Origin: Eledone cirrhosa
Lineage: Eukaryota
Assembly: GCA_964016885.1 (NCBI GenBank)
Contig: OZ024742.1
Span: forward strand, 207,328,001-207,392,000
Direction of reading: 5' to 3'
DNA: 64,000 bases
The stretch's first letter is position 1. Every line of letters begins with the position of its first letter. Positions 20,078 through 63,752 of the stretch are shown in pieces. A program made the position numbers and the translations under genes. The notes below the pieces were generated by a model. That model made no database searches and was not told the origin of the DNA. It saw only the letters and a list, made by a program, of their open reading frames with translations.

Positions 20078-20290
20078 TAGGATTGGTGCTCTAAATAGCG
20101 ATGTATACATGAATGTAAGTATAGTATATTTGGCAATATACCATATGTTCGGCGAAAGCAGGGTCTCTGATGAACGCCAACCAGCGTGAAACAAACTGTC
20201 ATCTTCCCTCCCTTCTTTCGCCGAAAGGAAGTAAGTGATATAGTTACTACTTTAAAACTGAATGCATATGGTCTTCTAAATGTTTCATGA
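20078..20290. mobile_element. Diverged relative of the 310-bp HHR unit with an internal inversion
   Basis: 20148-20290 (+) has CTGATGA-acgc/gcgt-GAA-ACA/TGT-C inside an 11-bp outer stem; 20078-20148 is the reverse complement of the unit's end/start junction. Confidence 0.7.
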
Positions 20291-21004
20291 GTGGATATAT
20301 TTTTTCGCATATATTTTAATATTATGATGAGTGCATTTATAACTATAATGAATTGTAGTATAAGATATTATTGTATGTCGTTATTTAAAAAAAATATTAT
20401 TTAGTAGATAAAGGATTATGCATGAATATAGATCTTATTTAAGTATATATATATAGACATAGAATTATAAATGAGCGTAAGATAGATAAAAAAATAATAT
20501 ATAAGCATTTTTTACATATACTTTAAGAATGTGAAAGTAATTATATTTTTAAAGTAAAGATGTATAGTATTATGCATAATCTATTATTGTATATGGTTAG
20601 TAATATAAAATTTAAACATTTTAAAACATTTTTTTTAAGGAAAGATAACTCCAATATTTAGCAATTTTAGGAATATAGATATTTAAAAATATATTGTTTT
20701 ATCTAATGTTTAACCTAATAATTAATTATAATTTATATTATAATATAAGTAAAAATGTCTATAAGATTTCAGAGCACCATATAGTAAATAGGATTTTGAT
20801 AATAATAAACAAATAAATATTTCTAAGTATAAATTTTGATAATAATAAATATTACTATGTATAAATTTAAGAACATTTAAAAACAATTAAAAATAAATAT
20901 TGTATATAGGCAACTTATATAGACCATAGTGTAGTATTTTCTATAAATTATAAATATCATGAAATGTTCTGAAGCAAGAATTAAATATTTGATTTTTTTG
21001 TTTG

Positions 21005-21197
21005 TTAATAATTGTTTCTACTTTAGGCACAAGGCCAGCAATTAACCAGTGCATTACTGGTACTTTATTTTATCGACCCTGTAAGGATGAAAGGCAAAGT
21101 CAACCTCCGCTGGATTTGAACTCAGATCGTAAAGGTACGTAACTATGCTGGAGAGCATGGCGTCCGACCCTCTACCGATACTGCCAATCCACCGCCC
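21005..21197 (-). mobile_element. Nin/Deu-like SINE copy
   Basis: Same family as 13690-13880. Confidence 0.85.
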
Positions 21198-21506
21198 AAT
21201 TTGTTTGTTAATAATGTTACCAGGATATATATATATATATATATATATATATATATATATATATATATATATATATATATATATATATATATATATATAT
21301 ATATATATATATATATATATATATATATATATATATATATATATATATATATATATATATATATATATATATATATATATACATATATATATATATATAC
21401 ATATATATATATATATACATATATATATATATATATACATATATATATATATATATATATATACATATATATATATATATATACATATACATATATATAT
21501 ATATAT

Positions 21507-22375
21507 AATTGAGAAGACGTGTGGCTGAGTGGTTGGAGAATTGGATTCGCAATCGTATGGTTGTGAGTTCGATTCCTGGACCAGGCGATGCGTTATGTCC
21601 TTGAGCAAGACACTTTATGTCACGTTGCTCCTTCTACCTGGAGTTGCGACCGATAGATAGTATTAGCAATTGGAAAGACCAACGGAAACATTGTTCCCTC
21701 GGTCCGATTTGACGAAAGTCGATCGTTACTTTTTTTTTATACATAGTTATATATATATATATATATATATATATATATATATATATATATATATATATAT
21801 ATATATCATAAAACATGTTTATAGAATCACAAGATAAAATATATACTATTTCCTCTCCCAATTAGCATAATTAACTATATAAAAAAATCGAATAGACCAG
21901 GCTATAAGAATGAGGCTTCTATGAAGAAATTTCCGACAAATAACCAAAACTAGCCAGCCCTTCGCGTCGGCCGTAGCGGAATATTTATCGAATATTTCGA
22001 CAGCGTAATCGCCCAGATACAGTCAACTAAACAGAATTAGGTGTAAAATAAACTAGGAGAAAATAGAATACATTTAAATACCTCTACCATGGTTTCGTCC
22101 GTATTTTGAGTTTTCCAATAATTATGTAATAATTATATAAACTCGAGCACCGGATTCTTCAGGAAGTTCGTTCTTATCTAGACACTAAATTTTCCAAAGT
22201 GATCGCGCCAAGAATTCATTCAAAATGGCTAAAAATGTGACGTAGTCGCGGTCAGGTTGGAAGGGGTGTGGTAGTTGCTTACGACTGGTGGCATTTTTGC
22301 TAGAAAGCACAGCACAATACATTCAAATTTGTATCTCAACCTAATGGGAGATTATTACATATTAAAAGTTTACAT
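21507..22375 (+). repeat. Copy 1 of a ~860-bp near-identical inverted duplication
   Basis: Reverse complement of 41543-42386 with a few substitutions and a (TA)n length difference. Confidence 0.92.
21510..21632 (+). mobile_element. tRNA-headed CORE-like SINE fragment
   Basis: gtggctgagtggtt (A box)...gagttcgattcc (B box)...gtccttgagcaagacacttta; inverted copy at ~42263-42385. Confidence 0.75.
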
Positions 22376-23085
22376 ATATATATATACATGTATATACATA
22401 TACGTGTTTTTCAACTGGTCACTTTGTGGCTCTATGAAAAAGTGACCAGTTGCAAAACACGTATATGTATATATATGTATATATATATGTAAACTTTTCA
22501 TCCTTACGGGGTCGATATGCCTTTCATCCTTACGGGGTCGATAAAATAAAGTACCAGTAATGCACTGGTTAATTGCTGGCCTTGTGCCTATAGTAGAAAC
22601 AATTATTAACAAACAAAAAAATCAAATATTTAATTTATTATATATATATATATATATATATATAATGTTACCAGGATATATATATATATATATATATATA
22701 TATATATATATATATATATCCTGGTAACATTATATATATATATATATATATATATATATATTATGGAATACTGTTGGCTTTTTGCTAAAGTATTTTCGAT
22801 ACCTTTTATTTATATATATATATATATATATATATATATATATATATATGCATGACTTGGCAAGCTATTTAGAACACTGGTTTAACCGCTTTACTTCCCT
22901 CCGGAAGAAGAGATATTATCTCGAAAATTAAGGACATTTAAATAAATCTAAGGTAAAAGACTAATTGTGAACAATATCTTTTGCAATTGCATTCTTTATT
23001 CTATGTCCATACCTGCATTGTTTTGGCTTTATTATACATATACAAACGTTTATATATATATATATATATATATATATATATACGC

Positions 23086-62100: not shown

Positions 62101-62491
62101 AACATTTGGAATATTCTAGAGACTAAAATAACAAACGTCGGATGTATATCATCGAATAAATAAGAATACAGAGAGATTCTCTCAACAGGAAAATATATGC
62201 TAAGATAACAATCAAGTAAAAGGCCTATACTACACCGTTTATTTACATAATGGAAGCAACAGTGTAATGATGGCTGCTGTGGAAGTGTTCAAACATCACT
62301 TAGAAAAATTCCAATCCTATGTAAAAATCCTTCTATCTTCAACAGATGATAATAAGACAATAACAACGCCCAACAACTCATCACCATAGTTATACAAGCA
62401 TTGATAAACTAGAAATACATACATGAAGCACATATTTCATAGTACAATAGAACTCACAACGAATCTGCTAAATATATATATATATATATAT

Positions 62492-62779
62492 AGAAAAAAA
62501 GATGAAATCGAAAATACAACTGGAGTCTTATTTTTTTTTTAAATATATATATTTATTTGGTTCCTTTACCGGTTTCGCAGTTCTTCTGCTTTTCAAAAGT
62601 AGAGTCGAGATGGAGGGTCTGTGGTTTTTCTCACATCTGAGAAAAACCACAGACCCTCCATCTCAACTCTACTTTTGAAAAGCAGAAGAACTGCGAAACC
62701 GGTAAAGGAACCAAATAAATATATATATTTTAAAAAAAAATAAGACTCCAGTTGCATTTTCGATTTCATCTTTTTTTCT
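62492..62779. repeat. 288-bp near-perfect palindrome with a U3-A8 hammerhead variant in each arm
   Basis: Centre tca-catc-tga; 62672-62707 (+) reads ctt-TTGAAAA-gcag aagaa ctgc-GAA-ACCGGT-A-aag; the mirror copy is 62564-62599 (-). Confidence 0.85.
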
Positions 62780-62880
62780 TTATACTTTCACTCGTGTAGG
62801 ACACCTCGGTTATTTTTCATTTTGTAAAAAAACCTCACTTTCTAATATATATATATATATATATATATATATATATATAT

Positions 62881-63400
62881 ATACAAATAAAATACAGAGT
62901 TACTAACTGATATTGATACCCTGCAATTAACAAGCTCAAAGTATAAATACTGAGCATTCTATAATAATATATTTGGAAATAAAGACAGTAAATTGTGTGT
63001 CTAAAATTACGAGGGTTGAAATACCACATTGGTTTGATAAATTTAACCTGAAGCAAACGGAAGATATAGAATATATATATACAGACCGTCTCAATAACTA
63101 TTTCATCTCTCGGACAGATTAGAGATTTCATCTATTTTGCCCTGAAAATTGTGTTTGTAACAGATAATCCGTAGGTTTTCCTCAGCACGAGATAAGATCA
63201 AATGGAACAAACACATACAACTAAAAGCCACACGAATGAAAATCTCACCTCGTGTTCTGGATGTTAGAAGTGGTGTGAGTGGATATGATATAATGCTCAG
63301 TATTTATACTTTGAGCTTGTTAATTGCAGGGTATCAATATGAGTTAGTAACTCTATATTTTATTTGTATTTCGGCTCCCTAACTAGGTGAGCGTATACGT
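62881..63400. repeat. pLTR-like element with a ~78-bp inverted terminal copy
   Basis: 62881-62958 is the reverse complement of 63292-63369; followed by ttcggctccct...tgagc, like the pLTR-ORF junction at 37160. Confidence 0.65.
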
Positions 63401-63444
63401 TGGGTGTATTAAGGCTATTATTTTTAGCATATCATTTTAATACA

Positions 63445-63752
63445 ACGCTATTTCAGAGCATCAATCCTAATTTTCAATGTTTGCTGGACTGGTAATCTCT
63501 CTGTATAATCAGTTCCTGATTATTACTGCAATTCTATAAGAATCCCGCATCTATAATTTTCGTTAAGGCAGGGAGTACGTTGCTCTGAGGAACACCAACA
63601 GTGTGTAACAGAATCTGTTAGTTTCTCTCCCTTCTTTGCCGAAAAAAAGAAATAAGTAACATAGTCACTACTTTAAAATGATAGCGCAAAGTCTTCAAAA
63701 TATTTTTAATTAAACATACGGTATATTGCCAAATATACTATACATACATTCA
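63445..63752 (+). mobile_element. Full diverged monomer homologous to the 310-bp array unit
   Basis: Starts cgctatttcagagcat and is colinear to the unit end; the HHR position reads gct-CTGAGGA-acac caaca gtgt-GTA-ACAG aat CTGT-T-agt (A13 mutated). Confidence 0.75.

Follow-up and report, generated by a model that had tools for sequence, protein, structure and literature searches.

The Window Holds a Young Array and Three Older Copies

The stretch of Eledone cirrhosa DNA analyzed here (the window) is 64,000 nt long, positions 207328001-207392000 of contig OZ024742.1 (C3) in a genome of ∼3.0 Gb, and (TA)n is abundant in it. It holds a tandem array and three dispersed copies of a retrozyme, a non-coding unit of ∼310 nt with a type I hammerhead ribozyme. 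The array consists of two opposed arms, which overlap by 3 nt at the inversion (48250-53124). The left arm (48250-51553, minus strand) comprises 10.7 units of 310 nt and the right arm (51551-53124, plus strand) 5.1 units, with an intact ribozyme core in every full unit of the latter (e.g. 52025-52031). The outer ends of the two arms lie at different sites in the unit, T2 on the left and T1 on the right, both of which recur throughout the family.

An earlier note on this DNA had proposed diverged relatives of the array unit at 20078-20290, 32116-32375, and 63445-63752. These homologues are real and carry every stem quoted for them: stem II is ttct/agaa in the array, acgc/gcgt from 20174, and acac/gtgt from 63592; the outer stems are ctcgataaaag/cttttatcgag, ttcggcgaaag/ctttcgccgaa, and ctcggcagaag/cttttgccgag; and the stem III variants are ACGCGT, ACA/TGT, and ACAG/CTGT. 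An nhmmer search with an array dimer returned 32113-32384 and 63440-63762 with high significance (E = 2.1e-19 each) but missed the plus-strand part of the copy near 20 kb, the inverted arm of which was found by blastn with the array dimer (E = 1.5e-6). This copy has independent confirmation: the pattern formed by its core plus stem II has 372 exact occurrences in the genome (control, 0), and the copy clusters with subfamily B.

The homology at 20078-20290 therefore stands, although what had been described as one homologue is in fact two opposed arms of a subfamily B insertion. The inverted arm (20075-20149, minus strand) contains the 3′ hairpins, T1, and a 34-nt tail, and its T2 end lies in (TA)n; the plus arm (20145-20285) contains the type I hammerhead, with the core CTGATGA at 20167-20173, GAAA at 20188, and a predicted cut after 20200, and ends ∼45 nt before T1. 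Its core is intact, but 9 nt are deleted from the 5′ strand of stem I. The second copy (32115-32376, plus strand) is a 5′-truncated member of subfamily E, of the U3-A8 lineage, with a T1 end, and its core at 32220-32226 is damaged (TTCATAA, with G5 changed to C at 32222). The third (63440-63761, plus strand) is a one-unit copy of subfamily C with a T1 end in (TA)n, in which the core CTGAGGA (63585-63591) is followed by GTAA in place of GAAA at 63605 (A13 to U). Contigs from 4 of the 6 listed runs yielded no piece that spans this third locus, and they carry no weight here. None of the three thus has an undamaged ribozyme, and from established hammerhead biochemistry the second and third should be inactive.

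The Family Is Large and Divided into Subfamilies

Genome counts were made by exact motif patterns with reversed controls, all of which gave 0. A 15-mer of the A type has 19,317 exact matches, an 18-mer of the older types has 4,188, and the ribozyme patterns of subfamilies E and C have 123 and 406, respectively. With 3 loci in an unbiased sample of 40 evenly spaced 10-kb stretches (400 kb), the genome total is roughly 20,000 loci, with a wide error. The loci examined individually were the first places of each motif search (contig C1 and, for some, C2). Units are 310-318 nt long with a GC content of 0.34 and one hammerhead each, and those of subfamily A stand head to tail in tandem. Among 84 distinct near-full units, identity is 66-70% between A and B-E and 80-92% within B-E, and the mean divergence from the consensus is 1.6% in A, 6.1% in D, 8.2% in B, 9.0% in C, and 12.8% in E. 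The 156 distinct ribozyme domains form 7 clusters of at least 7 members plus 21 outliers. At least seven subfamilies exist, and the window array belongs to the young subfamily A. The earlier note's reading of the family as old, diversified, and mobile, with its RNA structure conserved, is borne out by the motif census, by the divergence of the subfamilies, and by the covariation reported below. The repeat had no match in phage records.

Each unit is laid out as a long outer stem, an internal loop, a 6-bp stem I, the core, a stem II of 4-5 bp, GAAA, stem III, and UH, which is a type I hammerhead motif; three stems around the core with stem I open is the arrangement that covariation supports. 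The core CUGANGA / GAAA / UH with its 3-8 pair is present in 7/7 subfamily consensuses, as U3-A8 in the E lineages, a form known from Penelope-like elements (PLEs) (PMC4209133). In some minor lineages (L163:15-809, L261:62-307, L094, L060, and L116) a D-like or B-like backbone carries the U3-A8 core; the swap may thus have had more than one origin or have been moved by recombination. The pair at the base of stem II (10.1-11.1) is A-U, U-U, or A-A and never G-C in the consensuses. Folded as circles, the units have minimum free energy z-scores of -4.7 to -8.4 in the sense and -4.4 to -6.3 in the antisense orientation (40 shuffles each).

Stem III of subfamily A, which has a palindromic loop, is predicted to form a single base pair when folded as a hairpin (+6.0 kcal/mol) but a full self-duplex (-7.5). 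The main variants of the older subfamilies have 3-5 bp, and one minor E variant has 2 bp. A division into monomer-competent and dimer-type ribozymes, as put forward in the earlier note, is a plausible structural prediction that fits A as the dimer type against the rest. Each of the 10 commonest stem III variants can pair with itself, with just 0-2 central bases unpaired in the self-duplex, and on this model all subfamilies could dimerize as well.

Rfam matched the array unit to a hammerhead at a sub-threshold score only (HH9, 19.2 bits, E = 0.049; gathering score, 52); no hammerhead was among the 150 of 156 matches listed for the whole window, nor did any appear at E ≤ 0.01 in 5 older-subfamily loci. 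The Rfam microRNA matches in the window, all below gathering scores, were set aside as microsatellite or hairpin noise.

Stem Changes Are Compensatory between Subfamilies

The alignment used for covariation contained 82 of the 156 domains, namely up to 9 random members per cluster, the window copies, and the outliers. Covariation was computed by counting on the hammerhead structure drawn from these same sequences, with a tree simulation in place of R-scape. In the 82 copies, 85.7% of cells pair, cells changed on both sides number 390 against 139.7 ± 11.6 after shuffling, and the covariation score is 0.402 against 0.08-0.11 with slid partners. The number of pairs with a two-sided change (27 against 24.3, reached by 40/500 shuffles) is not significant alone. 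RNAalifold, unaided, recovered the outer stem and stems I and II and did not recover stem III.

Because the cells of the copy alignment count sequences, the analysis was repeated at the level of 7 consensuses from 61 rows, with the 21 outlier rows and 2 gapped pairs omitted, against a tree-null in which an equal number of substitutions was placed on the tree (3 topologies, 5000 simulations each). Here 219/238 cells pair against tree-null means of 161-171 and a maximum of 198, and there are 22 extra Watson-Crick pair types against 4.5-6.4 (maximum, 17). When subfamily A is omitted, 189/204 cells pair against 155, and the extra types are 17 against 3.1. The core pair 3-8 is C-G in 52/82 copies and U-A in 25/82. 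The compensatory changes proposed for the ribozyme stems hold, then, between subfamily consensuses, and they are shown for the outer stem, stems I-III, and core pair 3-8. Two hairpins directly before T1 show compensatory changes in D as well.

Insertions End at Two Fixed Sites

We classified 168 loci, of which 87 are tail-out (a minus arm and then a plus arm), 79 have a single orientation, and 2 are more complex. The outer ends form two clusters. One, T1, follows the last hairpins; the other, T2, lies 34 nt beyond it, and the spacing is the same in A and in B-E. After removal of 2 duplicates, both ends could be classified in 54 of 85 tail-out loci, and 53 of these 54 pair a T1 end with a T2 end, with one T1-T1 locus and no T2-T2 (p = 6e-15). 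A 34-nt tail on one end of inverted insertions, absent from the earlier note, is a PLE-type insertion signature. The inner ends, by contrast, are scattered, with small overlaps or gaps, and with the outer ends fixed at T1/T2 an origin of the inversion by L1-type twin priming was rejected. At several loci (e.g. L066, L072, and L077) the inversion junctions fall at the two outer-stem strands (unit ∼110 and ∼182), which suggests that the outer-stem hairpin supplies the joining homology there. TA repeats are present in 112/174 outer flanks compared with 9% of window positions.

The two arms of a locus tend to be copies of one variant. An arm is nearer its partner than the median other locus in 39/48 cases, and across 9 arrays 77/82 complete units, from both arms, are identical to the locus variant, every deviation being confined to one unit and none being common to neighbors. 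Arm length has a median of 2.4 units in A, with 17/32 over 2 and up to 10 near-identical units in an arm, compared with 0.78 in B-E, with 0/237 over 2 and none over 1.62, a contrast that is confounded with age. An insertion may hold up to ∼16 units.

Penelope-like Elements of the Genome

The genome has several PLE families with a reverse transcriptase (RT) and a GIY-YIG endonuclease, which we take to be Neptune-like. Their open frames span 844-1096 amino acids (938, 844, and 1096 in L211, L212, and L213, on C1 and C5), and they carry hammerheads of their own, unlike that of the retrozyme; L211 has a minimal U3-A8 hammerhead on each side of its open reading frame (ORF). The Hydra-type family F, with a CxCX5C linker, has 10,978 exact ribozyme matches genome-wide, and 6/19 sampled copies are fold-backs exactly at the ribozyme.

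A 5′-truncated, tail-out family F element with a ∼68-nt tail is the host of the window array (47263-55536, no single strand). It carries its own type I hammerhead on both sides (47367-47392, minus strand; 55484-55509, plus strand), and the array is nested in a microsatellite of its 3′ region. More decayed fragments akin to a Hydra-type PLE protein lie in the window at 37670-38691, 45290-45978, and 55814-56892.

In search of a partner element we compared 50 GIY-YIG loci, of 150 scored and 10,595 candidates. A terminal repeat matching the retrozyme was found in none of the 50, and the matches that did occur are AT-rich chance similarities, a retrozyme that had inserted secondarily at L182, and, at L229, the hammerhead of family F. 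In subfamily A, unit positions 85-164 (window 51970-52050) resemble the F fold-back junction, with an identical core and a near-identical stem II. In comparisons made post hoc, A agrees with the fold-back junction at 59/80 positions and with B at 56/82, and an antisense F match upstream of the core is present in A only (score 29 against 14 ± 2.6). Judged from these alignments, a recombinant origin of subfamily A with an F fold-back is possible.

A Model for Mobilization

Taken together, the data make it probable that the dispersed copies represent older subfamilies of a ∼310-nt non-LTR (long terminal repeat) retrozyme, inserted and now in decay, and that a PLE enzyme likely spread the family as circular RNA. 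Tandem transcripts would self-cleave and the monomers be circularized, as in the coral, mussel, and axolotl retrozymes. A (TA)n target would be cut in both strands by the PLE RT-endonuclease, a predicted dimer. Each of the two DNA ends would prime reverse transcription of the same RNA, one starting at T1 and the other at T2. Each cDNA would travel 0.1-10 turns around the circle, and the two cDNAs would be joined head to head, often via short microhomology. The paired T1/T2 ends, which are more informative than the covariation, support this model, as do the common variant of most arm pairs and the presence in this genome of RT and GIY-YIG PLEs with long open frames. Known PLE insertions lie in microsatellites and combine inverted 5′ copies with a tail of 30-40 nt on one side (Craig et al. 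2021; PMC3846280). A PLE protein studied in vitro cut both DNA strands and extended them, and its two internal start sites on the RNA delimit the tail (PMC11167929). That circular retrozyme RNA is copied into tandem cDNA by the RT of a PLE or LINE (long interspersed nuclear element) is itself a proposal (PMC7229834).

Several observations weigh against this account. Cleavage, circle, and transcript are inferred, and a long uncleaved transcript or a very recent local expansion would also yield identical units. The structure on which covariation was counted, having been drawn from these sequences, is favored over the slid controls, and the non-G-C pair at the stem II base in all subfamilies may weaken cleavage. 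Among the insertions, 79/168 loci have a single orientation, one or both ends could not be classified in 31/85 tail-out loci, and in 9/48 loci the arms are no nearer each other than random copies. On the side of the carrier, the missing terminal repeat in the 50 GIY-YIG loci counts here too, and the sampled PLE tails are ∼40, ∼65, and ∼68 nt rather than 34.

A more detailed version seems to us possible but somewhat doubtful. A single PLE dimer would prime both cut (TA)n ends on one 310-nt circle, with T1 and T2 34 nt apart, and whole arrays would arise in one event, with stem III setting the outcome. The dimer-only ribozyme of A would leave the monomer circle uncut, so that the RT could roll up to ten turns, and lineages with a monomer-capable stem III would stay at 1.6 units or below; A would perhaps have taken its ribozyme region from a Hydra-type PLE fold-back.

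The alternative that survives best, although we regard it as unlikely, is a PLE-driven retrozyme copied from a linear multimeric or short template, with long arrays produced later by unequal crossing-over, a model discussed in bioRxiv 10.64898/2026.07.22.740005. Axolotl retrozymes do yield multimeric RNAs (PMC7229834), PLE insertion in vitro works from uncleaved RNA (PMC11167929), and the absence of any old arm over 2 units means that array length shifts between lineages or with time. Against a later expansion, several young loci are long in both arms with a common locus variant, neighboring units have no variant in common while 77/82 show the locus mode, and the arrays are dispersed, at ∼18 loci per 31 Mb.

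We consider it very improbable that an unrecognized autonomous PLE left the copies behind as solo terminal repeats (pLTRs). The tail and inverted arms would be expected of such repeats, and at one locus (L247:915-1900; C1 ∼177628260-177629250) a tail-out C copy runs directly into the 3′ portion of a Hydra-like ORF that has decayed. This fusion lacks a microsatellite, the remainder of the unit was not found downstream, and a template switch or a later deletion could have produced it. A PLE ORF is placed as a body upstream of a unit in 0/151 regions, 56/240 old arms exceed one unit, head to tail and without an ORF, and the PLEs of this genome carry different hammerheads.

Another idea is that the dispersed copies are host-exapted structured RNAs under selection at their loci. 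In its favor, raw differences from the consensus are fewer in the core (33/766) than elsewhere (304/4218, p = 0.003), but the gap is gone once only private changes are counted (core 18/766, stems 28/1690, and other sites 69/3816; p = 0.31 and 0.74). Core lesions, moreover, are present in 22/70 older copies, sampled by motifs outside the ribozyme, and in 2/3 window copies. Exaptation is thus largely refuted and highly improbable. Since private changes are even across core, stems, and other sites, inserted copies decay neutrally and structure is kept in the copied lineages: the constraint acted on active master lineages and not on dispersed copies, as would be expected if structural selection were limited to the RNAs that get copied. 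Finally, although near-perfect inverted repeats are a known long-read artifact, fold-back errors of the assembly are scarcely credible here, given that the arms end at different fixed sites in 53/54 loci and that the shape recurs at old loci, the two arms of which differ by 2-14%.

Relation to Known Retrozymes and Penelope-like Elements

The class to which this element belongs is known, and the family is new. The name non-LTR retrozymes covers tandem repeats that bear a type I hammerhead and are expressed as circles, and PLEs have been proposed as their carriers (PMC7229834); phylogeny ties them to PLE terminal repeats, and local expansion has been discussed for their arrays (Li et al. 2026, bioRxiv 10.64898/2026.07.22.740005). 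As described in these two sources, the metazoan members share with ours the type I hammerhead, low-GC tandem units of 150-450 nt without an ORF, a range from monomers to multimers, and several families per genome, and the class is known in a mollusc (mussel). The subfamily A ribozyme unites features of the two axolotl types, the 1-bp stem III with a palindromic loop and the U-U at the stem II base. In contrast to Xenopus, the retrozyme ends matched no PLE among the 50 GIY-YIG loci compared here, and the U3-A8 core inside a retrozyme lineage is a difference from the non-LTR retrozymes described in these sources. The word “inverted” is absent from the main text of PMC7229834, the supplement of which may list cephalopods or show such ends, and we noticed no two-arm inversion or PLE tail in the available portion of the Li et al. 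preprint. In the literature searched, which excluded subscription papers, no paper on a cephalopod retrozyme or on a retrozyme inversion or tail was found.

With the endonuclease-bearing (EN+) PLEs (Neptune, Hydra, and Poseidon), as far as they are treated in Craig et al. 2021, PMC3846280, and PMC11167929, the retrozyme shares 5′ truncation, the inverted 5′ copy, a 30-40-nt tail at one end, (TA)n targets, and a type I hammerhead, including the U3-A8 variant (PMC4209133). It differs from them in lacking RT and endonuclease, in the number of units per insertion, and in its hammerhead, which has full stems with loop 1/loop 2, whereas that of EN+ PLEs is minimal. The passages of Craig et al. 2021 on Chlamys PLEs (e.g. 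the non-autonomous MRC1) describe most as having no detected hammerhead and the MRC1 type as resembling its autonomous partner at the 3′ end.

The near-perfect T1/T2 pairing with a PLE tail points to PLEs as the carrier. T1 and T2 are exact predicted start positions on the RNA, which makes a PLE rolling-circle model directly testable, and the seven subfamilies are a natural series of hammerhead variants on one backbone, with a stem III of 1 to 5 bp and either C3-G8 or U3-A8.

Other Features of the Window and Genome

Elsewhere in the window, retroelement fragments lie at 7554-8051, 25065-25763, 34085-34987, and 39532-40329, comprising three RT matches, of which one precedes a PHD finger, and a weak match to an endonuclease. 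A 33-nt tandem repeat with 48 copies and 94% matches occupies 921-2499, and a 244-nt duplication lies at 5654-6172. Outside the window we observed clusters of molluscan hemocyanin domains on C1 at 173.7-173.9 Mb, where the seven per gene copy would fit an octopod, and on C26 at 21.9-22.0 Mb.

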